The notes: a model not told the origin generated them from the sequence alone. Shown: positions 6,230 to 30,959, numbered from the stretch's first letter. The stretch: DNA of 56,062 bases from a virus (IMGVR_UViG_3300025676_000023:1-56062); one strand, 5' to 3'. Made by a program: numbers and translations.

Positions 6230-6231
6230 AA

Positions 6232-9400: not shown

Positions 9401-9406
9401 GTGTAA
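9401..9406 (+). promoter_or_regulatory. GTGTAA putative late-promoter motif
   Basis: Immediately after the terminator, 26 nt before ATG 9433; purine-rich AAGG leader follows. Confidence 0.55.
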
Positions 9407-9432
9407 ATTATGGCAAGGGAAAAGGAAAGGTT

Positions 9433-10616: not shown

Positions 10617-10639
10617 TGCCCAATTATCACATGATCCTC

Positions 10640-10664
10640 AAAGCCCCCTCGTGGGGCTTTTTTT
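10640..10664 (+). terminator. Rho-independent terminator
   Basis: AAAGCCCC-CTCGT-GGGGCTTT hairpin plus T tract; ends 4 nt before ATG 10669. Confidence 0.8.
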
Positions 10665-10668
10665 GTAA

Positions 10669-11714: not shown

Positions 11715-14700
11715 ATGGCGGCAGATCGACCCATAGCAGAAGGCACTATTCGCTTTACTCCAGACACTCGCTCATTGGCGAATGTCGAGAAAAGCGTCAA
11801 GAAGGCTATAACACGTATCGAGGGGGTAGCTTCTCGCGGCGGATTACTTTCTAAAGCCTATACCCAACCCTTGGGTAAGATAACAGGCGCTACCGACGAA
11901 TTCACCAAATCCCTAGAAGCTTCTAACGCTCGCGTTATTGCGTTTGGCGCTTCCGCTGGCATCATCTATACTGTGCAGCGAGCGATTACTGCGTCTGTTG
12001 GCGCGGCGATCAACCTCGAAAAGACGCTCGCAGACATTAACGTCATTTTAAATGAAACAAATAGTGGCCTTAGAAAATTTTCTCAAGAACTGTTTACAAT
12101 AGCGAAGGGCACGGGTCAGTCCTTCAGCGCTGTTAGTGAAGCCGCTTTGGAATTTGCGCGTCAAGGTTTAGCGGTAGAAGAGACCCTGAAGAGAACCCGC
12201 GACGCAATGATATTGGTTCGCTTGTCTGGATTGGATGTCGTGTCTTCCGTGGAGGCTGTCACCGCTACCCTAAATAGCTTTAACCAAACCGTAATTACGT
12301 CCACACAACTAATCAACAAATTGGCCAATGTTGACGCTGCGTTTGCCGTAAGCTCCGCTGACTTGGCCGAGGCCATCCGAAGGGTTGGTAGTTCCGCTCA
12401 GGATGCCAACGTTGGTATTGACGAGCTTATTGCTATGGTGACTACCGCTCAGCAGGTTACCGCTCGCGGCGGCTCTGTGATTGGTAACTCATTAAAAACG
12501 ATCTTTACTCGCTTGCAAAGGCCAGCGGTGCTTAATGATTTAGCGGCTTTCGGGGTTAAGGTCAAAGACGCTTCGGGAGCGATGCTTCCAGCCATGCAAG
12601 TATTGAAGAATTTCTCTAGCGCTTATGGCGGCTTAGCGCCAGCGCAAAAAGCAGTTGCCGCAGAAATGGTTGGTGGCGTATTCCAAGTTAACGTTTTGAA
12701 GGCGGCTGTTGGTGACTTGGGGAAACAATTTTCTATTTATGATCGAGCCTTGGGCGTTTCCATCTCTTCTACGGACCAAGCTATCCAAAGAAATGCCCTG
12801 TTAAATAAAACCCTATCCACCTTAATAAATGAAAGCTTAATTAACGTACAAAAAGTTGGCGCTGCTTTTGCCAACTTAACTATCACACCAGCCTTAACTC
12901 AGGTCCTTGAAAGCGTAAATACAGCCGTTGATAGTTTGACGCAAAAAGCTCAAGATGGCGATCTTGGCGTTACCTTTGGTAAGGGAATTTTAGCTGGCAT
13001 AAGTAATATCTTAAAAGGTCCAGCGCTGATTGCTATCGCGGGTATTTTGGGCAAACTTACTTTTAGCTTCTTCAAGTTCTCTACTGACGCGTTGAAAACT
13101 TTCACTGGGTTAAATGATACTGCTAATAGGCAAAAAGAAATGCAGCAGTTGATTCAGAATATTTTAATTAAAAATCCGACCTTGATTCAAGCCGCTACAT
13201 CCAGTGCGGAGGGATTGAAAATGGTGGAGCAACAAATCTTAAACATTGTTGAAGCTCAAAATGTAGCTATGAGTACTTCGGCGCAGCTTTCCTCAAAGAT
13301 AGCGGGCAATGTGTCTGCCTCCAACCTTAAAAGCATTAACTCCTCAGTGAGCGGAACGGCAGCAGCAGGATTTGTCCCCAACTACAGTCGCAAAAACGAG
13401 CGAGCAGAAGTTGCTGGCGCTATTCAAGGCGGTTATATGCCGGGCAACATTGAGACAATGCAAGTCAAAGGCGTTGGAACCGTAACTTGGAATGACGCTG
13501 AAACTGTGAAGACGTTCCCAGGCATGGAGCAGCCCGCGATCATGCCGCCTAGACAAAGTGACGCTGGGAAAAACTACGAAAAGAAATTTAAAGCCGCGCA
13601 CGGATTTAATCCTTATGCTCAGGGATTTGTACCGAACTTCAATAAGGGCAAGGGAATAAGAGTTATTGATGGTGACACTATGGAGGCTATGGCCACCGAA
13701 GAGAAAAGCTATAGACTGTCAAAGGTTGACGCCGCTGAGTCGAGTGACGGAGAATGGGGCAAAGCAGCGACAGCCCTGTTGCGAAAATCGACTTTGAGTA
13801 AAAAGGAGCGATTTGAAAAAGCTATTGCGAGAGGCGAAAAAGCCGCTTACGGACGGGGCTTGTTTGTTGATGAGAATTTTCAAAAACTTTTAGTAAAGAA
13901 AGGGCTCGGGGTCCCCGACTTAAGATACGCTAGTTCAAGCTACGCCGCTAAAGAAGTCGAGAAAGCGCGGGAGAAGGGGGCAGGAATATGGAGCGATAAA
14001 AAGAACGAAAAAGTTCTGCAATATTTGGGCCAGAGCAAACTGTTGGGCAAGGAGGAAAACCTAGAGTATAGGACTGGGAAAGGGTCCTTAACCACGAAGA
14101 AGCTCTTCGATAAGAAACACAAGGATACAGGTGATGTATTTCTCTCCCAAGACGCCCACCATAATCTATTCTCAAAAAAGAAAAACAAAGCTCTAGGTTT
14201 TATCCCTAATCTTGAATATGGAGGCTTGCGAGATGAAGATTTAGGTGATTCATTTATTAATGTAAACCCAAATAACAAAGCCAAATCAATTGATCACAGA
14301 TTAACCCAAAAAGAAATCGGAAAAAGAGTAGGCGGGAAAACTCTAATCAGGGGTCCAGAGGGAGAAACTCTCGTGGTGGGTGGAGACTTAGAGGGCAAGT
14401 CTGGATCAATCACAGTCGGCGGGTTAAGCGCCAGAAAGATAAAGAAGGCCAACCCCAAATTTGCCTCGATGCTTGATCAAGTTCCGAATCTATTTGACGG
14501 TTTAGCTTATCAAATCATGGGCGCTGTTGGGGCTAAATTTGACCCAGAGGGAGCAAAGGGCGCTGTTGCTGGCGTTAAGTTCGAGCAGGAATTTGCCGCG
14601 AAGCATGGACTTCCAGAAGCGGGAGCTAAAAAGGGTTCTGATTTTATACTTGCCGAGAAGATGGCTCAAAACCTTGGCACTCAAAAACATTTGCAATTAA

Positions 14701-17700
14701 AACTTTCGATGTTTGAAAAGAGCAAGCGCGACGTTGAAAAGACTGTGGATATAGCTTCTTCGTTTAGTAAGTATTTGGTTGACATGCTTACCAACAATAT
14801 TAAAACTCAAGGACTTTCGAAACTTGTTGGCCCAGATAGATTCAGAGCCGCTATGGGGGTTTTGAAAAAGAATCCAGCCTTAAAATCTCAATGGTCTGGG
14901 TACTTTGGAAAAGCGGGAATGATGGCTGAAGGGCTTGTTCCGAACTTTGCAATGGGTCTAGGCAAAGGCAAAAAATTACTTGAGAGAGGTAAAGTTAGGC
15001 TTGGAGAATTGGGCTCCGAAAGACGGCAAGTGAACGTAAACAAAGGGAAGGCTCTTTCTGGTCAAGCTGTCGCATACCTCGCGCAAACCTTTGGGGTCAG
15101 CCCCGCGATACTAGCTACAATAAGCCCAGCTATTGAAGGGGAGATTGACGGGCGTGCTTCGTACAATAAGATGTTAAACCCAAAGGGCAGAATGGGCGCA
15201 GGTATAAAAATTAGAGCAAGACCCTTTGAAATTTTAAATAATTTACATATCCCCGAAAAAAGAAAAGTATACCCCAAGGGAGAGGTTCTTAATGCCGTTT
15301 CATCTTTTGCCCACGAAAGCACGCATGCTCTTCAGGCCAAGATAGCAGGTGGATTACATGGAGACGAAGGTTTATCTCGGGACGCGCTTTGGGCCTCGAC
15401 CGCTGGCAACATAAACCCCCAAGAAGCTTTAAATCTTGTACCCGAAAACAAAAGGCAAGGGGCGGTCGATTACGCTAGCTCAAAAATTCACAGCGAACGA
15501 GCTAAGGAGTTAGGGGTATACCAAACCGAAGCCGAACAAGACTACGAAAGAACAGCTTATTATACTGGCGCTGCCGCCCGAGAGAAAGCGAAGGGCCTGT
15601 ATGGTTATGCGAGAGGCCTTGTTCCGAACTTTGCAAAATATCAAATAGGGCAAAAACTTCCCAAGGGTCGTGGGGCAGGTGGAAGACATCTAGCGGTAAG
15701 AGATAACAATATGGGCATTCATTGGGACCCCAGTGCCATGTTCCATGCTGATTTAGTGGAAAGAAGTGGGCTGCAAGGCAAAACTATGGATGGCGGTTGG
15801 CTTTATCCTAACGGACGATACGAAAAAATTAAGGGACACGATGGGTCTGGGCTGCAAGCGAATGGTCTTGTTCCGAATCTCGCTGTAGATTCTAGTTTCG
15901 CAATCAAGCAGCGAGCCAATAAAGGTCTCGTTCCAAACTTCGCCCAATCTGCTTTGGGCGCGGCTATTGGTCGAGAAAAAGCTGCTGGCTACAGCTCTAG
16001 TCAAGTTAAAGTTGGGTATGATTCTAGATTGGCCGCAAGCGGCGGCATAGGTGTTTATAATTCAACCGAAGGCTCTTTAAGTCGGGCTATTAATATGCAC
16101 GCGGCTTCTGGCAAAACAATGGGGCAAATTCAAAAACAAGGAGCCAGCAGAGGGATGGTTCCAAATTTTGAAACTGATGCTGGTGACTTTTTAGGCGGAG
16201 GAGCATCTTTGATGTTCATCGCGCCTATGCTCAAGCAGATGGCAGACGGATTTGCTGCGTCTAGAACCAAGAAGAAGGAGGAAGCCGAAGAGGTCGATAG
16301 GCTAACCAAGGCCATCCGCGAAGCCGAAGAGGCTGTTGGAGAGTTCGACGACAAGCTAGCCTCAGCGGCCCCCAGCAAAGAAGACATGAGCTCAAAGCGG
16401 GCTGAGATAGATAATAAAAAGGTAGAGGACCGAGAGAGCGCAAGGAAATTCGCTGAGGACAGTTTGGGCGATAAAACATCCACGGGCAAAGACAGGAAAA
16501 GAAATAAAGACGGAACACTTAGCCTCTCGACAATGAACAAATCAGACAGGAAAGAGTTTGATAAAGCATTCAATAGGTCGCTTGGTGCGCGGAATAGATC
16601 GACTGACGCGATGGAGAAAGAACTTGTTCAAATGCAGAAAGACAGAGATTCGAGGGCTAAGAATTTGACGGCGAGGGAGAAAGCTAGTGATCTCGTATTG
16701 CAAGCCGAGGAGGAGTACGCCCAAGAGCTAGATAAACAAAAGAAAAACAAGCCCACCTTAAATAGAAAAGTCAGCGAAATCGGCGGTCAACTCGCATTCT
16801 CCGCCCCAATGCTGGGCGGCATGGCTGGAAGCTTACTTGGAGGAAGCACGGGCGCAGCGGTAAGCGGCTTCGGTACGGGCCTAGGCACAGGTGCGGCGGG
16901 GGCGATGGTAGCCGCTGAAGCGGGAGAAGGGATGACTAATTTCTCGAAATCTATGGAAGGAAAGAAGGGTATTGGCGGGGGTCTTGGCAAAGTGGCGGGA
17001 GCAGTGGGAGCAATTGCTGGCCCAGCGGGTATGGCAGTAGCAGGGCTTATGGCTGTGAAGGGCGCACTTGTCGCCATGAAAAAGGCATCTATAAGAGAAG
17101 AGGGCGCAAAAACAGCAGCCGCCTTAGAGACGGTCTCCAAAAAATTCAATAAAGTGCAATCCTCTGGTCAGGCATTTATGGATGGATTTGATAAGTTGGC
17201 GAGAGCCTACGAGAATCCACTCAACGCAAAACCTGAAGACGTAAAGCGAATTAAAGATCAAATGAGCAAGGCTCTTGCTGATGCTCCAGCCGATTTCAGA
17301 AAACAAATTAACGCCGCCGCTGGAGACGCAGACAAAATCAAAGCCGCCTTTTCAGAGATGATGGAGAACCTCAATCAAAGGAAATCGGGCCTGTCGGCCT
17401 CTAAGGATATTTTTGATATGCGAGAGAAGTTTGCTTCGGGAGTCTTTGACAGGACACTTTTCGATAGAAAAGGCAATGGAGAATTATCCGCAGAAGGGTT
17501 AAATGTCAAGGGCACTATTGAATCTGGAATTCAAAGCGGAGCAAAGAGGGAAGAGATGAGAAAAGCAATTGAGAATAATGAGAACGTAGACTTCTCAAAG
17601 AAAGCTGATCAGATAAGGTTCTTTTCCGAAGAGTATAGTGCGGCAGTCAATTCGATAGAGAACCCATCAGGGATTGCGCTTACCACCCAACTGATGCAGG

Positions 17701-20700
17701 AGTTTTTTGAAAGATTAAAGAAGGGCGCTAAGGAAGCAGATAAAATAGCGGCGGATGTAGAAAGGAGGCAGAAAATAGAAAGAAAATACATGAAGCACAT
17801 GAATCTTCTTAAGGAGAAACTGCAAGCCTTCGTGGCGACTCTAGGGCTAGTAGCTAAAAGCGTTCAAGAAAAATCCTTCACGCTCCAAAAAATGGGCAAC
17901 AAAAGCAAAGACACTAGTCTTGATTTGATGAAGGCGCGTTTTGAGGGGTCAAGCAAAATGGTTGACCCATTCAGAACCCGCACTGAAAAAGTGCGCTCAA
18001 GCTCAGACGCTAAACGGTTCGAAATAAGAGCTAACTCAATAAAAGAAATGAGGAACGCCATAGCTGAAGGCTCAAGAAAAGCCCTGTCCATCTCAGCAGA
18101 AGGCTTTATGAAAGCCGCTTCTAAAATAGAAGCCTCAGCAAAGAGCCTAACGGCAAAAGAAAATCGCGAGCTCCTAACTGAATTCCAAAGAAACAAAAAA
18201 GCCCTCGACGCTCTTCAGCCCGTGATGGAAAACGCTTTCGCGGAATTCGCGAAGACCCCAAATAAATTAGATGCTCTAAATGGCGTAAGCACCAAAATGA
18301 AGGCGGCTCTAATAAAAGCTGGGTATGACTCATCAAAAGCTAACGTCCTGACCTCCATTTTAACACAAGAACTTATATCAAATAAAGACACCATCGGAAA
18401 TAAATTAGCAGAAATAATTCAAAAACAAAAAGACCAACTTCTCGTTGAGCAAGAACAAGCTTACTGGGCTCAAGAGAGCGCAAAACTTCAGGATAGACTT
18501 TCTTCGTTTGGGGGAGGCTCGGACTTCTCGAAAGGAGGCACAACCAATCTCTCAAGCAATTTCTCCAAGATGACGGACAATCTGGGCCAAGCTATAACTG
18601 GCGCTATGTCTGGGGGAATTATAGAATTGGGCAGGGCGCAAATGGGGATATTAGATACTCTTCTTAATAATTTAAATTTCGACAGTCTCAGGGGAGACAT
18701 AGAGGGATTAGCTCCATTACTGGGGCCAGCAATAGCTGGCAGAGCCGCAGACATAGAAGGCCAAATGAGCTTTGCAAAACAGCTAGCTAGAATCCAAGGC
18801 TTCAAGGGCGCGTTCCCCGAGGTAGACAGTCAGCAATTAGCCGTAGAGCAGGTATCTCAGCAGCTCAAATTAGATGACGTGCCCGATCATATCAGGGCAA
18901 TGAGAAGAAATTCAGACGTATTAAATACCTTAATCATGGCTCAAACCCACGATATGGCGAACGCAAACACCGAAGCCTTCAGTGACGCGTTGAAAATGAA
19001 CGGCCTACAAAACTTGGGCAGAAACTCAATGGCTTCGGCAATCGCTGGAAAACAAAATATCACCGCCAACGATCAAATCAGGCAGGTAAATATGGTAGGG
19101 TTTGAGGCACTGAATAAATCAATACAAAAAGACCTTCCCAACTCAATCAACACAGCGATGGCCCCGTTTAAAGACAGGATGGGGGAGATAGGGAAAGTCT
19201 TAGAGGACATGCAAATAGCCAAAGGAGGAAAGCCGCTTGAAGATAAAGCGGTGGAGGCTAAAATAAAATTAGGTAATTTAACCGAAGAATTCCAAGAAAA
19301 GCAAAAAGCCGCAAGGGAACAAAATAAATTTCTTAAACCACTCGAGAACCCCTTCGAAGTTGGCAAAAAACAACTACTAGCGGGGGGTACTACAACTGGG
19401 TCCAAATTAAAAACCGTTAATGACTCTCCTTACCGAGGTTCTGGTGAATTTGAAGATTTATTTGGATTGGGAATATACAAGAACGAGTTAGAAAAGAACG
19501 ATAAAGACTACAAGAAGAGAGTTAAAGGGAACGATATGGACACAAGCTTGAGGGATCGGTACGCTGCTAACACAGCGGCGTTAAAGAAACTAAATACCTA
19601 CCTGAGTAACAACGAAATCGATCTCTCGGGGGCACAAAAAATGGCCGCACGATTCGAAGGAAACAAGAGCAACTTTGGAAAGGAAGAGAAAACTACGGGG
19701 CACACAGAGTTTAACAGAAGAGCAGCATTTAGGGCTAGCATCAGGGTTCCTGCGAATTCTAAAATAGAGCGGGACCCAGGCATTAAAGCTGCCCAAGCTA
19801 ACCTCGAAAAAGCCCAAAAAGCACACCAAGATTACCTAGATAAAACAAAAAAAATGCGAGAACCCTCTTCGGGGAACCGCGTAAGCGAGACCGTAGCAAG
19901 GCTATCCAGTATTTTGAAGCCAACTTTAGAGAAGATATTCAGCAAAAAACTGTTTGAGAAATTCACAAGCACGAGCTCTGACATCGGGACTGTCGCAGAT
20001 GATGAAGGAGTCACGCGGAACAGGATGGATATTCAAGGGAGAACGGCTACATACTCACGCTTCAGTAGGGCGCAGATTGACGCGGAGTACAAGAAGCTGC
20101 AAGGGGAAGAAGGCGCGGCAAGAGAGACACTCCGTGGGCGAGTTGATGACGGAGGAGAAGTACGCGGGTTTGATGCAACAGCTATTGAAAAACAACAAGC
20201 CGAAAACGCACTAAAAAGAGTCGCGCTATTGAAAGCCTCCCTAAAAGTATCAGACGCCCATCTGGCAGCAGATGAAGAGCATAAGAAAGCGATGCAAAAA
20301 CTGAAAGACGCTGCCGCTGAGAGGCTTGAATTCATCCAAGATTCCATAACTCAAAACGAAAACATAACCCAATTGTTGGTCTTGTTCCGTCAGGTCCAAT
20401 TAAAAATGGCGGACAAAAAGCTAATAAATGCTGCTCAGGAAATCTTGCAAACATCCGTAAGCTTTGGCGATCCAAAACAATTACGTGACAATGCTGAATC
20501 TAAATACAGGTCTGGAATTAGCTCCATTTCATCGCTTGACCCAGCGGAACGAAAAAGAATAAGTGAAGACTCCGTAAAGCTCGGAGCATTAAGAAATAAA
20601 GTAAATACCGCAGGGGGTGAAGAGCTTTTCCAGCAGTTTATGACGAGGGACATGGGCATGGATTTTGACGAAGACAAGCTTAAAAAGCTAGGCCCATTAG

Positions 20701-22868
20701 AGTACGCAATAGAGCTTTTTGGCGACCTAGGAGAAGAGGGCCAAAAAGCCATTGAGGAAATCATGAACAAAATGGCAAAACATGGAAAAGACAAGTTTGA
20801 ACTAAGAGAAGATTTCAGAGGCAGAGACAGAGCTAAATCAGTAAGAGAGTTTAATAGAGAATTGGAATTCGCCGAGAAAGGACTGTCTACCCTAGCGCAA
20901 GTCCAAGCCGTAGTAAATAAAAGAATCGCAACATACGTAGCGCTCGGAGGCCGACTGTCCAAGGAAGAAATACAAAAAGGAAACAAGCAAGTCCAATCTT
21001 CTACCCTAGCAGAATTCGACAGAGAGCTAGGGGTCATAAGCAAAAAGGGATACAGTGCCCAAGTAATCCTCCAGAAACTAGGAGATAATATATCAAAACT
21101 GGTACAAAATCCAGAAACAAAAAAGGGAACTATTGGGAAAGACAGAATCGAACAGATAAGAAAAGCAAACAAAGCGGCGACAAGAGACTTTGGGCGGCAA
21201 TTCGAAGTCACCAAGGAGCTTTTTGAAGGAGGAGCGGTAAGCATAGACGTGCTCAGGTCGAGCCTTGCCCAGTTCAATGAGAAGGCGATGCAAACTGGGG
21301 ACTATGGATTTGAGAATTTCTTATCGTCAATTAAGGACGAATTCACATACACCAACGCAGATTTTTACAAAGACATCGACCAAATGGGTCGAGAATTCGC
21401 TAGAGACTTCAAGAGCGGAACAGCCTCGGCTTTCGGCGAAGCAATCAAAGGCACTAAAGATTTGAAACAAGCATTTTCCGAGATGTTCGGAAATATGGCC
21501 GACAAGATGCTTGATAAGTCCCTCAATATGGCCACCAACGCTGCGTTTGGAGCGATGGGCTTCAAGGGAATGAACAAGGGCGGACCCGTTAAAGGCTACA
21601 GTCAAGGCGGATCAGTCGTCGGAGGCTCTGGCATTAAAGACGACGTGCCAGCTTATTTAAGCCGAGGCGAGTATGTGATTCGCCGTAAAGCGGTAAATGA
21701 ATACGGAAAACAATTTTTTGAGTCATTGAATGGCGGCAATGTAATTGCGGCAGCGTCTGGCGGGGGTGTCGGTGATAAACTTTCCGAAGGCTCTGCCCAG
21801 AAAATCTTTGGCGGAAAAGCCCGCAATGCGGCTGCTATCCAAGCAGAAAGAACAAAAAGACTAAATGCTCTTTCGGGCGCTGGAATAGCATCTTACGGGT
21901 ACAAAGAATCAACTGGAGACACGAAGGAAGATTGGCTCGGAAGAAAGACCTCGCAAAAGATACTAGCAAGTAAAGTTGGGTTTAGGCTGGATTTTGGCAA
22001 ACCACTAAACGAGGAGCGAATCAAAAAAATACAAAGCGCAGTAAATAGCTACCCAGAAATCGGACCATTCATTGATCCAGACATCTTCAAGAAGTCAACC
22101 GTGCAAATCGGAAAAGGAGCAACGAAAGCTAAATTTAAAAACAGCTTCATATACAATGAAACCAAGCGGCCAGACGCGGGGAAATTTAATATCGATTCAA
22201 GACTTTCCAGCCTCGCTTTAAACGATGAAGACAACCCGCAGAACAAATATAAATTTTCAAAGGCTGACGAATTCTTTGGTTATCAAAAGGACCGCTTAGA
22301 GTACTACTCCGACAAGCAGAAAGAGCTGCAAGACTTTCAAGATCAAAAAGCCGCCAAGAGAACTAGCTTTCTGTTCGGGGCAGCGGCGATGCTGATCGGG
22401 GGCGCGGGGGGTGGCGGCAGGGGTTTTGCCAAGGGCGGAATCAATAAAGAAGATAATATCCCAGCACTGCTCACTGGTGGCGAATACGTGATGCGAAAAG
22501 GCATTGTTGACAAATATGGGATGTCATTCTTCGAGAGTTTAAACAGGGGCAAAATATCAGCCTTCAACTCTGGCGGGTACGTAGCTCCTGTGACTGGAGC
22601 TAGCGCCATAAGAGAGCACAAACTGGGCGAAGGCAGCAAATCTTCGGAGGGAGTCTACAGCACAAACAACATCAACATATCTATCAATGTTGACGGGAAC
22701 GGCGCTGTAACAGCCGAGTCTGATGAGCGCGGAGCAAGCAGCACGAACCCCGCCTCCCAAGAAGAAGCTAAGATACTCGCGGATAGAGTCAAGAGCGCAG
22801 TAGTGGAAGTTATAACTAACGAGAAGCGACCAGGGGGAATGCTCTACGGGAGTCAGGGAAGCGTTTAA
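11715..22868 (+). CDS. Giant tape measure protein (3717 aa) with an internal array of enzymatic cargo domains
   Basis: N-terminal TP901-like core ('LADINVIL...GQSFSAVSEAALEFARQG'), long helical and Gly/Ala-rich segments, C-terminal 'GG...VPAxLxxGEYV' repeats typical of gpH-like proteins. Confidence 0.9.
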   Translation: MAADRPIAEGTIRFTPDTRSLANVEKSVKKAITRIEGVASRGGLLSKAYTQPLGKITGATDEFTKSLEASNARVIAFGASAGIIYTVQRAITASVGAAINLEKTLADINVILNETNSGLRKFSQELFTIAKGTGQSFSAVSEAALEFARQGLAVEETLKRTRDAMILVRLSGLDVVSSVEAVTATLNSFNQTVITSTQLINKLANVDAAFAVSSADLAEAIRRVGSSAQDANVGIDELIAMVTTAQQVTARGGSVIGNSLKTIFTRLQRPAVLNDLAAFGVKVKDASGAMLPAMQVLKNFSSAYGGLAPAQKAVAAEMVGGVFQVNVLKAAVGDLGKQFSIYDRALGVSISSTDQAIQRNALLNKTLSTLINESLINVQKVGAAFANLTITPALTQVLESVNTAVDSLTQKAQDGDLGVTFGKGILAGISNILKGPALIAIAGILGKLTFSFFKFSTDALKTFTGLNDTANRQKEMQQLIQNILIKNPTLIQAATSSAEGLKMVEQQILNIVEAQNVAMSTSAQLSSKIAGNVSASNLKSINSSVSGTAAAGFVPNYSRKNERAEVAGAIQGGYMPGNIETMQVKGVGTVTWNDAETVKTFPGMEQPAIMPPRQSDAGKNYEKKFKAAHGFNPYAQGFVPNFNKGKGIRVIDGDTMEAMATEEKSYRLSKVDAAESSDGEWGKAATALLRKSTLSKKERFEKAIARGEKAAYGRGLFVDENFQKLLVKKGLGVPDLRYASSSYAAKEVEKAREKGAGIWSDKKNEKVLQYLGQSKLLGKEENLEYRTGKGSLTTKKLFDKKHKDTGDVFLSQDAHHNLFSKKKNKALGFIPNLEYGGLRDEDLGDSFINVNPNNKAKSIDHRLTQKEIGKRVGGKTLIRGPEGETLVVGGDLEGKSGSITVGGLSARKIKKANPKFASMLDQVPNLFDGLAYQIMGAVGAKFDPEGAKGAVAGVKFEQEFAAKHGLPEAGAKKGSDFILAEKMAQNLGTQKHLQLKLSMFEKSKRDVEKTVDIASSFSKYLVDMLTNNIKTQGLSKLVGPDRFRAAMGVLKKNPALKSQWSGYFGKAGMMAEGLVPNFAMGLGKGKKLLERGKVRLGELGSERRQVNVNKGKALSGQAVAYLAQTFGVSPAILATISPAIEGEIDGRASYNKMLNPKGRMGAGIKIRARPFEILNNLHIPEKRKVYPKGEVLNAVSSFAHESTHALQAKIAGGLHGDEGLSRDALWASTAGNINPQEALNLVPENKRQGAVDYASSKIHSERAKELGVYQTEAEQDYERTAYYTGAAAREKAKGLYGYARGLVPNFAKYQIGQKLPKGRGAGGRHLAVRDNNMGIHWDPSAMFHADLVERSGLQGKTMDGGWLYPNGRYEKIKGHDGSGLQANGLVPNLAVDSSFAIKQRANKGLVPNFAQSALGAAIGREKAAGYSSSQVKVGYDSRLAASGGIGVYNSTEGSLSRAINMHAASGKTMGQIQKQGASRGMVPNFETDAGDFLGGGASLMFIAPMLKQMADGFAASRTKKKEEAEEVDRLTKAIREAEEAVGEFDDKLASAAPSKEDMSSKRAEIDNKKVEDRESARKFAEDSLGDKTSTGKDRKRNKDGTLSLSTMNKSDRKEFDKAFNRSLGARNRSTDAMEKELVQMQKDRDSRAKNLTAREKASDLVLQAEEEYAQELDKQKKNKPTLNRKVSEIGGQLAFSAPMLGGMAGSLLGGSTGAAVSGFGTGLGTGAAGAMVAAEAGEGMTNFSKSMEGKKGIGGGLGKVAGAVGAIAGPAGMAVAGLMAVKGALVAMKKASIREEGAKTAAALETVSKKFNKVQSSGQAFMDGFDKLARAYENPLNAKPEDVKRIKDQMSKALADAPADFRKQINAAAGDADKIKAAFSEMMENLNQRKSGLSASKDIFDMREKFASGVFDRTLFDRKGNGELSAEGLNVKGTIESGIQSGAKREEMRKAIENNENVDFSKKADQIRFFSEEYSAAVNSIENPSGIALTTQLMQEFFERLKKGAKEADKIAADVERRQKIERKYMKHMNLLKEKLQAFVATLGLVAKSVQEKSFTLQKMGNKSKDTSLDLMKARFEGSSKMVDPFRTRTEKVRSSSDAKRFEIRANSIKEMRNAIAEGSRKALSISAEGFMKAASKIEASAKSLTAKENRELLTEFQRNKKALDALQPVMENAFAEFAKTPNKLDALNGVSTKMKAALIKAGYDSSKANVLTSILTQELISNKDTIGNKLAEIIQKQKDQLLVEQEQAYWAQESAKLQDRLSSFGGGSDFSKGGTTNLSSNFSKMTDNLGQAITGAMSGGIIELGRAQMGILDTLLNNLNFDSLRGDIEGLAPLLGPAIAGRAADIEGQMSFAKQLARIQGFKGAFPEVDSQQLAVEQVSQQLKLDDVPDHIRAMRRNSDVLNTLIMAQTHDMANANTEAFSDALKMNGLQNLGRNSMASAIAGKQNITANDQIRQVNMVGFEALNKSIQKDLPNSINTAMAPFKDRMGEIGKVLEDMQIAKGGKPLEDKAVEAKIKLGNLTEEFQEKQKAAREQNKFLKPLENPFEVGKKQLLAGGTTTGSKLKTVNDSPYRGSGEFEDLFGLGIYKNELEKNDKDYKKRVKGNDMDTSLRDRYAANTAALKKLNTYLSNNEIDLSGAQKMAARFEGNKSNFGKEEKTTGHTEFNRRAAFRASIRVPANSKIERDPGIKAAQANLEKAQKAHQDYLDKTKKMREPSSGNRVSETVARLSSILKPTLEKIFSKKLFEKFTSTSSDIGTVADDEGVTRNRMDIQGRTATYSRFSRAQIDAEYKKLQGEEGAARETLRGRVDDGGEVRGFDATAIEKQQAENALKRVALLKASLKVSDAHLAADEEHKKAMQKLKDAAAERLEFIQDSITQNENITQLLVLFRQVQLKMADKKLINAAQEILQTSVSFGDPKQLRDNAESKYRSGISSISSLDPAERKRISEDSVKLGALRNKVNTAGGEELFQQFMTRDMGMDFDEDKLKKLGPLEYAIELFGDLGEEGQKAIEEIMNKMAKHGKDKFELREDFRGRDRAKSVREFNRELEFAEKGLSTLAQVQAVVNKRIATYVALGGRLSKEEIQKGNKQVQSSTLAEFDRELGVISKKGYSAQVILQKLGDNISKLVQNPETKKGTIGKDRIEQIRKANKAATRDFGRQFEVTKELFEGGAVSIDVLRSSLAQFNEKAMQTGDYGFENFLSSIKDEFTYTNADFYKDIDQMGREFARDFKSGTASAFGEAIKGTKDLKQAFSEMFGNMADKMLDKSLNMATNAAFGAMGFKGMNKGGPVKGYSQGGSVVGGSGIKDDVPAYLSRGEYVIRRKAVNEYGKQFFESLNGGNVIAAASGGGVGDKLSEGSAQKIFGGKARNAAAIQAERTKRLNALSGAGIASYGYKESTGDTKEDWLGRKTSQKILASKVGFRLDFGKPLNEERIKKIQSAVNSYPEIGPFIDPDIFKKSTVQIGKGATKAKFKNSFIYNETKRPDAGKFNIDSRLSSLALNDEDNPQNKYKFSKADEFFGYQKDRLEYYSDKQKELQDFQDQKAAKRTSFLFGAAAMLIGGAGGGGRGFAKGGINKEDNIPALLTGGEYVMRKGIVDKYGMSFFESLNRGKISAFNSGGYVAPVTGASAIREHKLGEGSKSSEGVYSTNNINISINVDGNGAVTAESDERGASSTNPASQEEAKILADRVKSAVVEVITNEKRPGGMLYGSQGSV
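13368..16169 (+). repeat. Eight dispersed in-frame G(F/L/M)(V/I)PN(F/Y/L) motifs within the TMP
   Basis: Starts at 13368, 13623, 14196, 14931, 15615, 15864, 15924, 16152, all in the TMP frame. Confidence 0.9.
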
Positions 22869-23618: not shown

Positions 23619-26600
23619 TTAGCATCCTGCTGGAGTATTGCCAGCGCATTGAGGCAGGGAGGTGTTCTTTTGGTCGTTTGTTTCTTCCGTTGTCGCCATC
23701 ACAAAAAAGATTGCGTTGGACAGGTAAGAGTTATCAACCAGCTTGCCCATGTGAACGTCGAAGTAACAAGGCAATTTTGGCAGACCGCCAAAGCCCTGAA
23801 CGAATCCAGCGGGGTGGAAATTAAAGTACGCATCACTTCCGCCTATCTGCAAATCTTTGCCAGCGTAAGGACCGCTAGTGGCGATTGCTGCATCCATAGC
23901 GGCCTGAGCGCCAGCTTTAAAATCGCTAGCGTAACTGGGCTGAATGGCACTGGTGGGACTAAAGAAGGCGTCTATACCCTCTAGAAAAGTGTTACTGTAG
24001 TAAGATTCATTATTACTGTTCATTCCAACCACCCAGTACGGATCATCCTTGGCTTTTTTGAAATGCACTCTGTATCTTCTGAAGCCCTTTGTGTAGCTCT
24101 TGCTGTCTGTGTGAGTAAAGTTGTCGCTTGCATCGGTGCTGCTGTCGGAGTACCCACCCTTGGGAGATATATCTCTAGTGGCTGTATTCGAAGGGTAATT
24201 GTTCGTTAACAAATCACCCTGCTTCCAGTAATACCCGCACCCCATAGAGTAATTGTTTAGAGCGTTCGTTGGTCCAACAACCATAGTCCCCACCGCCGCT
24301 GTTATTTCGGTCATATATATGGTGGGAGATTTAAATGTACAATAAAACGGAAGATATCCTTCGTAATTACTATACTCATCAGTCACGTCTTCGACGCAAG
24401 CTATTCCACGACCATACCAATTTCCCTGAACGTCAATTTGAATCCAAGCTTTCCAGCCCTCCCCAAGTAAGTCCATTGTGTCTTGGGTGACTTTTTCTAT
24501 CCCTTTGACGTCAGAAAATCTACCTGTGAGCTTTTTAGTGAGATCGTAAGAGTCTCCATTCGAGACTGCTAGTTTTTCTACGTCTAGATCAAATTGGTCA
24601 ACGTAGGCGACCATGAAATAAGCGTCTTGAGTTTCTGTGTTTTGAGTAGACCAGCTTGGGTTAATTTCTATAACATCAACATCGGCGCTTATTCTCTGCA
24701 TGTCTATTCCGCCAGCTCCACCTTGGTAATCAGAATAACTAAAAGTAGAGCTCCGTGAGAGAACGACCACCTCTTTGACATCGGACGGCCTATTTAAATT
24801 AAAAATCTTTAAGTGGTTGTTCAGATCAACAAACCCCTGCAAAGCACTTGCTTGCGTTGGCGCTGGATTATCAACGAACAAAAAGTCCATTCCGTCTTGT
24901 TGACCGTCAGACGAAGCCCCTTCTGGGGTTTGAGCCACGACCTTAAGGGTAACTTTTCTTTTGATGTTATCGTAACTATTTCCTGCCGCCGCGTAATTAT
25001 CCGCCAAGGTCCAATCGTAAGTTGTTAGGGTCGAATCTGAGTCATCAGGTTTATACTGATTAGTTGTTTTTATAGGGGTTCCAGCGGTGGTATGCTCAGC
25101 CCAAACCCTAAGTTGATAGCTGAAATCAAGCGCAATATTTGCGTCGTCAACTTGAGGTATACTTGTGGCCCATTTAAATCTAACTGTTGAATCTTCGTAT
25201 TGATCAACTGTTCCAGCGGTAGTCGGGTCGCTCTCGTTTGGATTTTGACCAGCGGCACTTACGGCGTCGTCGTGCAGGGATAAATGACTAATTTTAACGT
25301 CTCTAATCGGGTTTACTCCGCCAACGGTTTTGCTCTGACTTACATTTACGCCATTAGATTGACCCAAGCTGTTGTAAGCGTATACAGAAATATAATATTC
25401 GCCGTTTGTTGCTGGTATAAAGCTGGCTGTCAAATTATTTAAAGAAAATACTTTCACCGAAGAGTCGTAAGTCGCTTCGGAAGCGCTAGCCCCTTTCCTT
25501 ATGTATACTTGATAGTACGAAACGCTTTCTGAGTTTACGGTGCTCGCTGAAAAATTAAATGAGACTTTCTTCGTGTTCGGAGCTCCTGCTATCGAAGTGA
25601 GGCTAGGGACGCCAATTCCAGCGGGAGCACCAGGCACTGCGAAGTTGATATTGTTTACGGGCTTGGTCGCTTCGTCAATTTCGGCATATTTACGACGGGC
25701 GTATTCCGCAGCGGAAATTTCATATTTACCCTTGTCTCTTTCTCCTATGTTTATGACTCTAAACTCTTGCTCTTGAGTCAGGGACTCGAAGAAGGTGTCT
25801 GCACGATTATCTACGCCTGTAGTAGCTATGCTCCAAAGGGCTTCGCCGCTAAATCCGCTCGTAGTATAAGAAGTTTCATTTAGATTTCCGCTCACGGTTA
25901 TCACGCTAACCCCACTTACCGAAGCTATAGTATTCGAGCTGATGTCAAATGTTTGGATTTGTTTATTTCTGATTAAATCTATTTCACTTGAATTATTTAA
26001 GCTTACCTGAGAGGTGTCGTAATAAAAAGAAGGAGTGGAGACTTTTAGCTGGTATTCCCTTTTCTGGTCTAGATTGTCGTTCGTGATGAATTTGTTTCCA
26101 TCCCAGCTTTTGCCGCCTTTCAGTTTGGCGTCTAGGGTTATCTTAAAAATGGAGTCACTAACTCTATCTAAACCCTTAATCCTTCCCCCTCTTCTGGTCA
26201 TTGATCTATTCGTGTCGGAGACGGTAAACACGTCACCTGGTCTTAATATAGACCCTTCTTGACCAGCAGAGAAAGACACGGTCTCCGTTTCGTTAGCTTC
26301 CGTAGATAGAATCCAGCGACCAAGTCGTTGGGCTTGAGATTTACTTGTGCACCCAAAGGCTGAGATTTCTTTTTCTTTTATTCCGTATTTTCTGATTGAA
26401 TCTATGTCTTCTACGTATTCAACGGCTGGCTCAAATTTGTTGTTTTTGTCATTGTATCTCACAATCGCTACGGTGTGCCTGACCTTGGCGCTTGTGCTGG
26501 AGTATTTGAATTCTCCATTTTGTACGTTTGTGTTATTGAATTGAAATATGGGATTCTTTAAAGCATCTTGAACCGCGAATAGAGCGCCTCCGTTGTAATA

Positions 26601-27932
26601 AACGATGCCCCTGAATATGCTGGCCATGTCATTTAATACTTGATAAGCGTCTGATCTAGATTGAATTAGTATATTGCAGCTAAACCTTGGTTCTAGTCCA
26701 TTGTCGTAATCTTGAACGAGCTCGTCGCAGTATTGGCCTATTTCGTAAAGAGTCCACTTGTCGAGTGTTGATGTGTCTACATATTTACCCAACCCATACC
26801 TCTTGTTCGTAATTAGGTCGTAAAAGCACCAAGCTGGGTTGTCTGTCCAGTATAGGCCCTTGCCTCTGGAGGCTCCCACGTATGTGTCGTCTTTTTTGCC
26901 GTAAGGACCAACGCTTTCCGTTGAGAAGGTTCCGTCCCAAGTTCCGTGGTAAGTCCTTGATATCGGGTCGTAATTACTCGGAATCTTTACCTTCAACAGA
27001 TTCATGTCGTAGGCTCTGTCGGGTATTTTTGAAAAGTTTTCGGCGTCGAAAGTGTTTTTAACTACGTAAGATTTCGGGTATATGAATGTGTCGTCTATTT
27101 CTTCAACTATATTGTCAACAAAGATATCATTTTTAACGTCTGGAGTCGTGGGCTCTTCGGTCTCTTTAAAGATTTGAATCTCCCAGCCAATGAAGTCTCC
27201 CCTGCCGTCTTTGTCCCTAGCCGCGACTAGAGGTAGATCAATTATAAAGCTTCGAGAGTAGGGGCTGGATAGCGAACCTTCAACTTGCATTGACCCAACG
27301 GATGTATATTGGACATCAGAGCCAAGAGCATACTTTGCCCTGTAGCTAATGTTGACCGCAACGCTAGCGTCGAGCAGTTTGCCGTAGGTTTCATTTGGTT
27401 CTGCTGTCGTGCCTGGGTTTCTGTCTACTTTTCCAAGCGATGAGATTTTGAAATTTACGATTGCCTTATTGCAGTATTTATTTCTAATTACGTAGTATCT
27501 CTCATACTTGGCGAACTCAATCGTTGCTCCGCCAGTTTTTCTTTCCTTACCTCTTAGTTTTTCATTGATTTGAACGAGTCTTCTCGAATCAAGCCCCTCC
27601 TGAGAGATAGTCTCTTGATTGGTTACTAAGTCTATGCTCTGAAAATTAAACTTAAAAGAATCTTTATCAAAGACGGGGTTCTTATTCCAGTAAATCGAAG
27701 CGAGCTCTCCAGTGTTTATGCTGGAGTGGTAGGGCTTGTGGGTCATTCCTTGGGTGTACCCTATCGAGCCAGCGACGTTGCTTCCGTTGTCTTTGTACTC
27801 TTCGTGTACTAGTCCTGAAATTTCACCCTCACACAGCAAGTCCACAACATAGCCAGTAGTGTTAGACATGTACCTAATGCCTGTGCCGTCTCCAGCGCCG
27901 TAATAAACGCCTTGTACTTTATCAGTAGCCAT
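23619..27932 (-). CDS. Tail tip/host-specificity protein, lambda gpJ-like
   Basis: 'DLLCEGEISGL', 'WTDNPAWCFYDL', 'RYGLG', 'EPRFSCN', 'AFGCTSKSQAQRLGRW', 'LRPGDV'. Confidence 0.9.
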   Translation of the reverse strand: MATDKVQGVYYGAGDGTGIRYMSNTTGYVVDLLCEGEISGLVHEEYKDNGSNVAGSIGYTQGMTHKPYHSSINTGELASIYWNKNPVFDKDSFKFNFQSIDLVTNQETISQEGLDSRRLVQINEKLRGKERKTGGATIEFAKYERYYVIRNKYCNKAIVNFKISSLGKVDRNPGTTAEPNETYGKLLDASVAVNISYRAKYALGSDVQYTSVGSMQVEGSLSSPYSRSFIIDLPLVAARDKDGRGDFIGWEIQIFKETEEPTTPDVKNDIFVDNIVEEIDDTFIYPKSYVVKNTFDAENFSKIPDRAYDMNLLKVKIPSNYDPISRTYHGTWDGTFSTESVGPYGKKDDTYVGASRGKGLYWTDNPAWCFYDLITNKRYGLGKYVDTSTLDKWTLYEIGQYCDELVQDYDNGLEPRFSCNILIQSRSDAYQVLNDMASIFRGIVYYNGGALFAVQDALKNPIFQFNNTNVQNGEFKYSSTSAKVRHTVAIVRYNDKNNKFEPAVEYVEDIDSIRKYGIKEKEISAFGCTSKSQAQRLGRWILSTEANETETVSFSAGQEGSILRPGDVFTVSDTNRSMTRRGGRIKGLDRVSDSIFKITLDAKLKGGKSWDGNKFITNDNLDQKREYQLKVSTPSFYYDTSQVSLNNSSEIDLIRNKQIQTFDISSNTIASVSGVSVITVSGNLNETSYTTSGFSGEALWSIATTGVDNRADTFFESLTQEQEFRVINIGERDKGKYEISAAEYARRKYAEIDEATKPVNNINFAVPGAPAGIGVPSLTSIAGAPNTKKVSFNFSASTVNSESVSYYQVYIRKGASASEATYDSSVKVFSLNNLTASFIPATNGEYYISVYAYNSLGQSNGVNVSQSKTVGGVNPIRDVKISHLSLHDDAVSAAGQNPNESDPTTAGTVDQYEDSTVRFKWATSIPQVDDANIALDFSYQLRVWAEHTTAGTPIKTTNQYKPDDSDSTLTTYDWTLADNYAAAGNSYDNIKRKVTLKVVAQTPEGASSDGQQDGMDFLFVDNPAPTQASALQGFVDLNNHLKIFNLNRPSDVKEVVVLSRSSTFSYSDYQGGAGGIDMQRISADVDVIEINPSWSTQNTETQDAYFMVAYVDQFDLDVEKLAVSNGDSYDLTKKLTGRFSDVKGIEKVTQDTMDLLGEGWKAWIQIDVQGNWYGRGIACVEDVTDEYSNYEGYLPFYCTFKSPTIYMTEITAAVGTMVVGPTNALNNYSMGCGYYWKQGDLLTNNYPSNTATRDISPKGGYSDSSTDASDNFTHTDSKSYTKGFRRYRVHFKKAKDDPYWVVGMNSNNESYYSNTFLEGIDAFFSPTSAIQPSYASDFKAGAQAAMDAAIATSGPYAGKDLQIGGSDAYFNFHPAGFVQGFGGLPKLPCYFDVHMGKLVDNSYLSNAIFFVMATTEETNDQKNTSLPQCAGNTPAGC

Positions 27933-28573
27933 TAGTAATACTCCCCATCTTCAAAGATTACTCTGTCTCCATGCTCGTGGGAGTATGCAATCGCTAAGGA
28001 GCCGACCATTACCCTTCCGTACCCCACGGGAACGGGACCGCCTGGGTTGTAAGTGTTAATTGGCCCGCTAAATAAGTAGGACTCTTTTTTGTGTGTCTGC
28101 TGTATTTCTCTGAAATCTTCAAATTCTGGCGGCTCCGCGAGAAGGTTGCTCATGCCAGTCATAAACGCGTAAGCGCCCATCATCGTCATCATCGCGCTCT
28201 GCGTGTGGAGCCCCATACCGAACATCATAGCGCCCCCCACAACCAAGGCTATGTCTTTGGCGTCATCGCCCGCACCCTCTAGGACTGGCACGACATCTAT
28301 TGATTTCATAGTCTTGCTCAAGAACATCTCGGAATCTTTAGCTTCTTCCGCTTCATTTATTGGCTTTGAAAATAAGTTTTTATCGTCAGTAAGTATTTTG
28401 TATTTTATGTTTTGCTTTTCGTTAGCGAAGATAGCTTGGGAAAGTTTTCTTTTCGAAAGCACGTCAACCGCCCTCAACGCTTCAGCGACATTAGACACCT
28501 TGAGGTCCCAATTTTTTTGACCTAAAGCTTCAGCTAGATTTCCGTGGAAAGTTATTTTAGTTAGTCCTGACAT
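27932..28573 (-). CDS. Tail assembly protein, lambda gpI-like
   Basis: 'ITFHGNLA', 'VAEALRA', 'IDVVPVLEGAG', 'SYLFSGPIN...GGPVPVGYG'. Confidence 0.9.
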   Translation of the reverse strand: MSGLTKITFHGNLAEALGQKNWDLKVSNVAEALRAVDVLSKRKLSQAIFANEKQNIKYKILTDDKNLFSKPINEAEEAKDSEMFLSKTMKSIDVVPVLEGAGDDAKDIALVVGGAMMFGMGLHTQSAMMTMMGAYAFMTGMSNLLAEPPEFEDFREIQQTHKKESYLFSGPINTYNPGGPVPVGYGRVMVGSLAIAYSHEHGDRVIFEDGEYY

Positions 28574-29276
28574 TTTTATGCCTAATTATTTTCTTAATGA
28601 GCTTCTGGTGTCTGCCCGTTAACGATTCTATTCTGGAGTAGCTTCTTACTGGTTGATGCAGGATCAAGCCGTTGTCTAGATAAAGCGCTATATGAGAGCA
28701 CGGCTTATTCCCCCCCGAATTAAATAATATACAATCATACTTCGATAAGCTTGATACTTCAAAAAATCCTTCGTCTTCGAAGTGTTTTTCGAACAGTTCG
28801 GGTAAATACGACTTCCAGTCTTGATCTCTATAGTGATGGTTTAGAGATATGCTTAATTCGTCCTCGTAAAAATCTCTCACCAAAGAATAACAATCCGTGT
28901 TTCCTATATCAAACTTTCTGCCTATATATCGATTAAAGCTTCCGTAAGACGGGGAGAATTGCAGGAGAGAATTGTCCTCGGGGCAATACATTACGTAAGT
29001 TACTCTATGAGCAATACTGTTAAATTTGTCAAACTCAGAGAAGTTCCGATTGCCATTCGTGTGAGAGTGATAAACAGCAACGATCTCACCAAGGTTTGAG
29101 GCTCTCAAGTAGTCTTTAGGATTAACCCTAAAAAGGTCCTTTCCCGCAGAGTCGTTTTTCGTGGGAATACAAGCTAATTTCCCGCGATCAGAAATAATCA
29201 AACCACAACACTCTCTGGGGAACTCCTTTTCGTGATGAGCTTTGATCTGCTTTTTAATTTTACTATCTAAAATCAC
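28557..29276 (-). CDS. Tail assembly protein, lambda gpK-like (JAB/MPN plus NlpC/P60)
   Basis: 'PRECCG', 'YHSH...FSEFD', 'DCYSLVRD', 'HIALY...ILH'; likely GTG start at 29276 overlapping the gpL stop. Confidence 0.9.
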   Translation of the reverse strand: MILDSKIKKQIKAHHEKEFPRECCGLIISDRGKLACIPTKNDSAGKDLFRVNPKDYLRASNLGEIVAVYHSHTNGNRNFSEFDKFNSIAHRVTYVMYCPEDNSLLQFSPSYGSFNRYIGRKFDIGNTDCYSLVRDFYEDELSISLNHHYRDQDWKSYLPELFEKHFEDEGFFEVSSLSKYDCILFNSGGNKPCSHIALYLDNGLILHQPVRSYSRIESLTGRHQKLIKKIIRHKNVRTN

Positions 29277-30451: not shown

Positions 30452-30452
30452 C

Positions 30453-30959
30453 TTATTCCACTACCTCTTCCAACTCTACCTTGATTGAGTAATTATTCTC
30501 AAAATTCATCGTCACGTCCCAGCTCCTACATACAAACTTTTTCATTGAAGAATAGGGGGACGGAGGCAGGTACGCAAAAGCTTCAGAGCCTCCGCGCTGA
30601 TGCAGGAAGTGGGAAATCGCTGTCGTTTCCGCTTCGTTCCTTTTGTCGAATACTAGCGACACTTTAAGTAGTCTCGTATTTATCCCGTCTGGTGTTCTTT
30701 GCTCGTATCCATCTCCGAATTTAATAGTCCTTACCGTGGGGTCTGTAGAGACAGAGGGGGAGTAGTTGGGAATCCAAAAGAAGTGGGGGATTGTTTTATT
30801 ATCAAAAGTGATATTCCCGCCCCATTTAGAAGCCCCCACGCTTGGGGTCTGGGTGTTTGAGTCTTCTAGGCTATAGAAGTGACTGTCAGAGTGGAGGTAA
30901 ACCTCATTCTTTGAAGCTGTACCTCCAGCCCAGCTTGGTATTTCATATATAGAACCCAT
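30453..30959 (-). CDS. Minor tail (distal tail) protein, lambda gpM-like
   Basis: 'VRTIKFGDGYEQRTPDGIN', 'FLHQRGGSEAFAY'. Confidence 0.9.
   Translation of the reverse strand: MGSIYEIPSWAGGTASKNEVYLHSDSHFYSLEDSNTQTPSVGASKWGGNITFDNKTIPHFFWIPNYSPSVSTDPTVRTIKFGDGYEQRTPDGINTRLLKVSLVFDKRNEAETTAISHFLHQRGGSEAFAYLPPSPYSSMKKFVCRSWDVTMNFENNYSIKVELEEVVE

Follow-up and report, generated by a model that had tools for sequence, protein, structure and literature searches.

The viral record IMGVR_UViG_3300025676_000023:1-56062 (here called the window, that is, the whole stretch of 56,062 bp that was analyzed, estimated to be ~34% complete) encodes a tape measure protein (TMP) of 3717 amino acids (aa) in one open frame (11715..22868, plus strand), in which a strict short peptide punctuates an array of exchangeable protein cassettes. 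Eight copies of G[FLM][VI]PN[FYL] are found at residues 552, 637, 828, 1073, 1301, 1384, 1404 and 1480 (nucleotides 13368-16169), with spacings of 85, 191, 245, 228, 83, 20 and 76 aa, exactly as reported in an earlier note on this DNA. The open reading frame (ORF) was assigned as a TMP because it carries the PF10145 (PhageMin_Tail) domain, matches TMP families of the PHROG database and adjoins lambda-like tail-tip genes. The PF10145 domain forms the N-terminal core (aa 130-320; 12102..12674, plus strand) with a Pfam E value of 2.3e-25 and 90.1 bits against a cut-off of 33.2, and all seven PHROG matches were tape measure families (best E 6.3e-35).

The motif is highly unlikely to recur by chance. 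When all six frames of the window were scanned, no copy was found in any frame other than that of the TMP; 2000 shuffles of the TMP produced 2 matches, and the analytic expectation was 0.0009 per protein. Two near-copies were left uncounted: GFNPYA at residue 630 is the conserved end of the first module of the array, and DQVPNLF at residue 921 is within a cassette that folds. The eight counted copies differ in their choice of synonymous codons (GGA/GGT/GGG/GGC for Gly, CCC/CCG/CCT/CCA for Pro and AAC/AAT for Asn) and share a mean of 12.6 of 18 identical nucleotides, with a 19-nucleotide exact run in one pair. Since the synonymous sites differ among the copies, it is the peptide that is conserved and under selection.

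A logo built from 180 instances read A-[SA]-x-G-[FL]-[VI]-P-N-[FY]-[AS], with no information outside positions -3 to +6. The core was matched 912 times in 268 distinct family proteins, compared to 0.15 in shuffles. Against these 912 full matches, one-off variants were rare at the Gly (18), the Pro (14) and the final aromatic residue (6); at the Asn there were 53, and Ser took its place in 31 otherwise perfect copies. Position 2 was more variable, His (86) and Tyr (78) being evidently tolerated. Two readings of the peptide were set aside at this level: an N-glycosylation sequon, as position +6 is Ser in only 33 of the 180 instances, and a Pfam match of the motif region to PAM2, which was weak (E 0.11, below the cut-off) and was taken as chance.

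The cassettes between the motifs are mosaic. For a survey of segments, the motif was widened to G[FLMHYIVW][VIL]P[NS][FYLWM]; 195 distinct TMPs of at least 1800 aa then carried 2 to 14 motifs each (four in 96 of them), and their 752 inter-motif segments fell into 179 clusters, of which 118 were singletons. These numbers bear out the expectation of the earlier note that a constant motif separates domains whose number and identity vary. The opening and closing segments (79 aa and 70 aa, respectively) do not vary and proved to be conserved modules in most relatives. From these comparisons, the array has a fixed frame consisting of a conserved module, here called FIRST, 0 to ~11 variable cassettes, and a second conserved module, LAST. 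FIRST (~78 aa) had 137 members, 135 of them in slot 1, with 28 different right-hand neighbors and 27 invariant columns across 40 sequences. In the window, its invariant residues include E565, E596 and S615, and H629 is conserved in 13 of 14 sequences. LAST (~70 aa), with 131 members and 41 different left-hand neighbors, closes the array. The commonest layout was FIRST, one cassette of ~260 aa, and LAST.

The cassettes of the window (C8, C6, C31 and C13) move within this frame. C8 had 18 members in slots 1 to 5 with 10 distinct right-hand neighbors, C6 had 12 members in slots 2 to 4, and C13 had 5 members, standing directly after FIRST in the relative P0012. Such a mosaic, shuffled multi-domain architecture with variable slots and neighbors is also a trait of polyvalent proteins. 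Exchange takes place at the motifs: 64 BLAST alignments between the window TMP and its relatives ended at residue 642 and 7 at residue 1079, while 22 started at residue 1404 and 7 at residue 828. Furthermore, there are fragments in which C6 or C31 is joined to LAST, or C6 to C13, with the junction precisely at a motif. Some segments are very short, 8 of the 752 being below 30 aa.

The array of the window runs in the order FIRST, C8, C6, C31, C13, a 14-aa spacer and LAST, all on the plus strand. It opens with motif 1 (GFVPNY, aa 552-557; 13368..13385), followed by the FIRST module, a small alpha/beta domain that ends in HGFNPY and is conserved in relatives (aa 558-636; 13386..13622). Motif 2 (GFVPNF, aa 637-642; 13623..13640) leads into C8, a staphylococcal-nuclease-like (SNase-like) cassette with a Lys-rich tail (aa 643-827; 13641..14195), and motif 3 (GFIPNL, aa 828-833; 14196..14213) into C6, which is delimited by relatives and by a structure model (aa 834-1072; 14214..14930). 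Between motif 4 (GLVPNF, aa 1073-1078; 14931..14948) and motif 5 (GLVPNF, aa 1301-1306; 15615..15632) lies C31, a candidate zincin-like peptidase with the sequence HESTH at aa 1200-1204 (aa 1079-1300; 14949..15614). Next come C13, recognized from relatives (aa 1307-1383; 15633..15863), motif 6 (GLVPNL, aa 1384-1389; 15864..15881), the 14-aa spacer (aa 1390-1403; 15882..15923) and motif 7 (GLVPNF, aa 1404-1409; 15924..15941). LAST, a small conserved domain supported by relatives and by a model (aa 1410-1479; 15942..16151), and motif 8 (GMVPNF, aa 1480-1485; 16152..16169) complete the array.

Structure models placed the motifs in linkers and the cassettes in folded blocks. Two AlphaFold2 models covering aa 540-1085 and aa 1066-1520 were built from cleaned alignments; a broad alignment (A2), in which unrelated cassettes and LAST rows were misaligned, was replaced by two others (A3 and A4). 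Predicted local distance difference test (pLDDT) values were 82 to 94 for the block of FIRST (aa 559-637), which consists of a helix, four strands and a helix, and 90 to 97 for LAST. C6 was modeled confidently in part (pLDDT 80 to 95), as was C31, including the helix that carries HESTH (helix 123-143 of the model); the SNase-like part (C8) and C13 were modeled poorly. Seven motifs lay wholly within regions of pLDDT below 50 (motif 4 in both models), and motif 1 lay in a block with a mean of 47. Low pLDDT can also stem from shallow alignments; the motif columns were nonetheless the best populated. An unstructured motif in well-populated columns is, as far as such models can tell, as expected of a linear motif that would need a partner. 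Every confident domain in both models was bounded by motifs, and the boundaries proposed in the earlier note thus agree with the modeled linkers as well as with the homology breakpoints. Its description of the stretch as non-helical stands if it means that there is no coiled coil, but helices predominate in the modeled 239-aa and 222-aa cassettes.

The two conserved modules were compared with each other as well. In the monomer models, the motifs did not pack on FIRST or LAST. That FIRST and LAST are copies of one domain was not established (hhalign E 0.14, probability 0.44), and MAFFT tended to place LAST rows on FIRST. Whether FIRST binds LAST and so clamps the array into a closed loop was addressed by a complex prediction, whose scores of 0.00 and 0.00 spoke neither for nor against such a clamp. 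The relatives P0099, P0146 and P0140 have kept FIRST and lost the cassettes and LAST; in P0099 and P0146, the motif after FIRST reads GLVPEK or GFIPES, i.e., G[LF][VI]PE without the Asn and the aromatic residue. Decay of the motif after loss of the array was rejected as a trend, since a changed copy was present in only two of four array-less cases, which are too few. A changed copy also occurred in at least 7 of 17 FIRST modules that lacked an intact next motif but had motifs downstream. Further motifs were present downstream of 190 of 194 FIRST modules.

What the cassettes are could be answered for a minority of them. The SNase label given to C8 in the earlier note was confirmed, with 28.1 bits in Pfam against a cut-off of 21 and an E value of 5.8e-6 to a thermonuclease in the Protein Data Bank (PDB). 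The elements DGDT, R, VD..E and YGRGL were aligned with those of the thermonuclease, and we take the DGDT, R, D..E and YGRGL residues to be catalytic. Owing to the poor model of this part, the fold match of C8 was weak (E 0.19). For C31, which had been labeled an HExxH peptidase, the motif HES[TM]H is kept in all three sequences (the window, P0004 and P0041), but no family or fold match supports the label: there was no Pfam match, the best Foldseek E value was 0.9, and the best VIA score was a Z of 6.1 to helical repeat proteins, with a very shallow multiple sequence alignment. P0004 and P0041 were the two C31 homologues among 184 other proteins. The PD-(D/E)XK label for C6 found no backing, as there was neither a Pfam match nor a VIA match with Z of 5 or above for the 546-residue multi-domain model; protein-atlas leads from C6 to LPD domains scored 0.85 to 0.88, under the 0.9 line of the tool.

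Fold searches were performed with multi-domain models rather than single domains. With both models, Foldseek returned nothing from the PDB at E ≤0.001, the best VIA Z scores were 4.9 and 6.1, to unrelated helical proteins, and the best E value in BFVD was 0.011. FIRST and LAST had no Pfam relative and no PDB relative in profile searches of PDB sequences (best E 0.11 for FIRST, none for LAST). One of ten cassettes taken from relatives was above a Pfam cut-off (PF16581), the rest giving nothing or sub-threshold matches, and five cassette-rich TMPs had only PF10145 above the cut-off. As judged by these family searches, the array is mostly protein dark matter. Because most cassettes lack a Pfam family, the word effector for them is drawn from their mosaicism and from a few enzyme domains.

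The PF16581 cassette (L003:13154-14416) is a recurrent one with 8 to 9 members; the family is cytidylyl-/nucleotidyltransferase-associated and scored 34.2 bits against a cut-off of 26.7, which points to nucleotide-modifying cargo in some lineages. Single-sequence pattern scans of IMG/VR found no more loci with C31 or C6. No free-standing homologues of C6, C31 or C13 were found among shorter proteins by a search that reaches only relatives sharing exact 5-mers; all 22 matches look like TMP pieces, as judged by their lengths, contig ends and, for some, PF10145 tags.

Several collections showed how widely this layout is distributed. A word-indexed search with residues 520-1520 retrieved 32 giant TMPs of 2270 to 5603 aa, all with 2 to 10 copies of the motif, and HMMER retrieved 392 proteins at E ≤0.001 (317 at ≤1e-10) from 1.84 billion cluster representatives; the 392 stand for clusters at 50% identity. 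Both sets were gathered with the array itself, which partly guarantees that their members contain FIRST, LAST and the motif. Among the 142 retrieved proteins of at least 1800 aa, 138 have the N-terminal 520 aa, or TMP core, in common; the other four appear N-terminally truncated, as the array starts near their N-terminus. A scan of IMG/VR with two peptides of the N-terminal core, which was independent of the array, gave 427 relatives, of which 80 loci were kept. In 78 of these the longest plus-strand ORF was a TMP with 1 to 6 strict motifs, most commonly 4. The longest ORF of the other two loci (L050 and L055) was another gene, and the TMP motifs of L050 were found in a six-frame count.

The motif is all but exclusive to TMPs. 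In 3.67 million six-frame residues from the window and the 80 loci, scanned with up to 10 kb of flank each, TMP frames accounted for 304 occurrences and all other frames for 4, of which two turned out to be in the L050 TMP and two on the strand opposite a TMP. When three whole virus records (182 kb, 98% complete; 180 kb, 100%; 137 kb, 79%) were scanned with the back-translated pattern, 9 of 10 matches were inside the TMP. The tenth, LGLVPNY, is on the minus strand of L085 (G001:C1:155500-163500) near 159490, inside a folded, YopX-like ORF of 170 aa, and is probably a chance match. Across lineages whose cores are 25-50% identical, the Gly, Pro and Asn of the motif are retained. The motif is the hallmark of a large uncultured phage clade.

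The GenBank set searched contained no cultured member of this clade. The nearest TMPs of cultured phages (Stills, phiL47, Kirov and SPbeta) align over the N-terminal core only, at ~25% identity, and none of the four has the strict motif. Several member sequences carry TARA ocean labels, and the clade comes from marine and other aquatic metagenomes. The matches in genome collections were all metagenome-assembled bins of inconsistent taxonomy, and a host is therefore not assignable. The identical TMP sequence is present on a 173,074-bp contig as well.

Since a strict peptide is found in every linker, next to any neighbors and in lineages with cores of 25-50% identity, a single conserved reader is likely to recognize it. 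The earlier note took the motif for a protease-cleavage or sorting signal that would turn the TMP into a polyprotein delivering effectors at injection; support for this interpretation is partial and comes from its comparative predictions, which hold. The reading that we favor, though tentatively, is that the motif may be the recognition site of an endopeptidase that frees cargo in the tail lumen. The motif, in its extended form A-[SA]-x-G-[FLMHY]-[VI]-P-N-[FY]-[AS], would be a linear peptide in disordered linkers that is read by one conserved trans-acting reader, most likely an endopeptidase. The cassettes would be translated as fusions with the TMP and thereby loaded into the lumen of the tail tube as the tube polymerizes around the TMP. 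The chain would then be cut at the motifs, either as the tail matures or once the TMP has been ejected, and the liberated enzymes, e.g., the nuclease, would enter the host just ahead of the DNA.

Several observations are consistent with this scheme. As in a polyprotein, the same short site is found at every domain junction, in linkers modeled with low confidence. High-specificity viral polyprotein proteases read sites of 6 to 8 residues, and cargo of phage heads is loaded by a targeting sequence that is later cut off. Enzyme cargo is indicated by the intact catalytic positions of C8 and by PF16581 in a relative. The accessible text of a study of polyvalent proteins also records that DarA and DdrB of phage P1 are processed (PMC5512222).

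Other observations weigh against cleavage of the motif by a protease. PHROG and Pfam searches of the window, its tail genes and related records tied no protease to the motif, and prohead proteases were inconsistent (S78 in none and ClpP in one of four records). Within the tail module of the window, the only peptidase domains that could be recognized belong to the gpK homologue (28557-29405, minus strand), which carries Prok-JAB (E 3.3e-11) and NlpC/P60 (E 8.2e-9); these domains sit at the far tip of the tail, and other roles have been proposed for them. The HExxH cassette was rejected as a general processing protease, being too rare with its two homologues, and neither FIRST nor LAST has a relation to any protease that is detectable by Pfam or PDB profile searches. 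If the two outermost motifs were cut, the N-terminal core and the ruler would come apart, for which we know of no precedent in TMPs. Most cassettes have no recognizable enzyme family, so their role as cargo is itself conjectural, and the motif, being nearly invariant, is stricter than many sites of proteases and could just as well be a binding peptide.

Such a binding peptide is the basis of the main alternative, which we consider doubtful and in which the motif is never cut but serves as a docking site, its copies binding the same conserved partner while the cassettes stay tethered to the TMP. The partner could be the inner tube wall, a chaperone for tail assembly whose gene lies just upstream, or a chaperone or prolyl isomerase that the TMP encounters in the host as it is ejected; through docking, the globular modules would remain threaded or unfolded in the lumen, or their refolding would be assisted. 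A strict linear motif of 6 to 10 residues in disordered linkers, present in TMPs only, fits docking as well as it fits cleavage, the invariant Pro preceded by Val or Ile would suit a prolyl-isomerase or chaperone site, and an intact TMP keeps its function as a ruler. The TMP of HK97 reportedly depends for its function on the periplasmic chaperone FkpA. Candidate partners exist in the window as well, in the form of eight conserved ORFs without family assignment upstream of the TMP (63-76 of 80 loci). However, the irregular spacing of the copies, from 14 to more than 400 aa, is a misfit with the periodic lattice of the tube, the monomer models show no packing of motifs against FIRST or LAST, and no partner has been identified.

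It is improbable, in our estimate, that the motif has no reader at all and is an evolutionary junction, a neutral flexible linker at which recombination swaps, deletes and duplicates cassettes without breaking their folds. The homology breakpoints do fall on motifs, the very short spacers (14 aa here and the few others in the family) look like deletion scars, and one pair of copies shares the 19-nucleotide exact run; but the variation at synonymous sites places the conservation at the peptide level, 18 nucleotides are short for homologous recombination, and a mere linker would have drifted where the Gly, Pro and Asn have been kept. Self-cleavage at the conserved Asn, through a succinimide that breaks the N-[FY] bond, is least credible and would surprise us greatly. 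Asparagine peptide lyases of this kind act in the capsids of nodaviruses and tetraviruses and at the C-termini of inteins, and the tetravirus capsid is cut at N|F, which recalls a motif whose Asn is nearly invariant and is followed by Phe or Tyr and then by Ala or Ser. Known Asn lyases need a folded catalytic environment, however, while the flanks of the motif carry no information and the motif itself is modeled as disordered; the copies with Ser in place of Asn likewise speak against such chemistry.

Compared to known systems, the motif-punctuated array is a variation on enzyme-bearing TMPs, polyvalent proteins and MARTX-type arrays. The established roles of TMPs are to measure tail length and to form a channel, and some of them contain a single wall-degrading domain. 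Enzyme-bearing TMPs resemble the one studied here in having an enzyme domain inside a PF10145-type TMP, with N-terminal cores of ~25% identity; the TMP of Bacillus phage Stills is annotated with LysM and lysozyme domains, and YomI of SPbeta with a transglycosylase. They differ in having one or two fixed muralytic domains, no punctuating motif (in none of the four), no mosaic array and no FIRST or LAST, and their matches to the window cover the N-terminal core only.

MARTX toxins, which are secreted by the type 1 pathway, carry a mosaic array of effectors between conserved flanks that engage membranes, and a constant, built-in cysteine protease domain cuts the linkers between the domains after Leu. 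Pfam found neither a MARTX-type cysteine protease domain nor RTX-type glycine-rich repeats in the TMP, and the likeness to it is one of layout only. A bolder picture built on this analogy, which we regard as rather unlikely, is that the tail lumen would be a programmable cargo hold in which a clade-specific reader, maybe one of the constant modules FIRST and LAST acting as a new miniature protease in the manner of the MARTX protease domain, cuts G-[FL]-[VI]-P-N-[FY] and lets lineage-specific free enzymes go ahead of the DNA. Viral polyproteins and T4-type head cargo share with the array a site of 6 to 8 residues at each junction and cargo that is fused and then freed. They differ in that no protease has been identified here and in that the compartment would be the tail lumen, in which we know of no such processing.

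Polyvalent proteins, as presented in the accessible text of Iyer et al. 2017 (PMC5512222), occur in phages and conjugative elements; they are likewise large, mosaic and multi-domain and are thought to be injected with the DNA, and proteolytic release of their domains has been predicted. Unlike the TMPs described here, they are packaged in the head and defined by MuF, LPD, ART and MPTase domains; Pfam searches with E values of up to 0.1-1 found no MuF, LPD, ART-PolyVal or MPTase-PolyVal domain in the whole TMP or its segments. The accessible text of that paper describes no boundary motif, and the term "tape measure" has 0 occurrences in it. The nearest published concept is that of the Sle1-type TMP-related effectors of actinobacterial contractile injection systems (PMC13277306, 2026), in which a TMP-derived scaffold in the tube bears an exchangeable domain. 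According to the accessible text of that report, they differ in having a single C-terminal functional domain and in belonging to a contractile injection system and not a phage, and no repeated motif is mentioned there. In the accessible text of an overview of jumbo phages, the TMP is mentioned only as a conduit. In full-text literature searches, neither the motif nor an array of cassettes in a TMP was found to have been described.

The array lies between the N-terminal core with its adjoining hydrophobic segment (aa 424-457; 12984..13085, plus strand; Kyte-Doolittle windows ≥1.3) and a C-terminal ruler of ~2200 aa. A second, Gly/Ala-rich hydrophobic segment (aa 1757-1790; 16983..17084, plus strand) follows downstream, and the array may thus form a loop between two membrane-active parts after ejection. 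Near its C-terminus, the TMP has two elements of the form D[DN][VI]PAxLxxGEYVxR...FFESLN[GR]G (21639-21740 and 22452-22553; aa ~3309-3342 and ~3580-3613). Each is preceded by a Gly-rich run, and the consensus is kept in an alignment of 14 proteins of relatives.

The neighboring genes are those of a tail module. Downstream of the TMP lie the lambda-like tail-tip genes M, L, K, I and J (23619..30959, minus strand; PHROGs 14, 18, 30, 32 and 31), homologues of which are found downstream of the TMP in 45-61 of the 80 related loci; synteny of the tail module around the TMP is retained in 45-76 of them. The TMP gene (11715-22868, plus strand) is head-on convergent with the tip genes (22865-30959, minus strand), which include a gene for a 250-aa Ig-like fiber protein, whereas in lambda the TMP and tip genes form one co-directional operon. 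The eight consecutive conserved ORFs directly upstream of the TMP (5732-11682, plus strand) have no PHROG family and no Pfam family above the cut-off; presumably, they include the tail tube, chaperones and connector proteins of the clade. The remainder of the window holds replication genes, and a PHROG search of the window recognized no terminase, portal, capsid or prohead protease. The DNA polymerase (phrog_405) is seemingly split into ORFs at 42842-45391 and 47330-48082 (both minus strand), an 849-aa ORF covering positions 317-1075 of the profile and a 250-aa ORF covering positions 62-192; between them are an exonuclease-subunit gene, a cysteine-dioxygenase-like gene and a 315-aa ORF.

In this clade, the TMP serves as the scaffold for a modular and hypervariable collection of domains, most of them unknown, with a strict peptide at the boundaries. 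That hundreds of uncultured phages from aquatic habitats have this layout suggests an inherent mechanism for loading cargo proteins and, perhaps, for releasing them. If the motif is a cleavage site, the array would represent the first case of a cargo system in the tail lumen of a siphovirus, and the motif would provide a portable, defined junction for loading foreign proteins into phage tails. If it is a docking site, it would represent a new contact between a TMP and a partner. Either way, the motif is a sequence handle for domain boundaries that helps to mine more than 100 unannotated candidate host-interaction domains from viromes.

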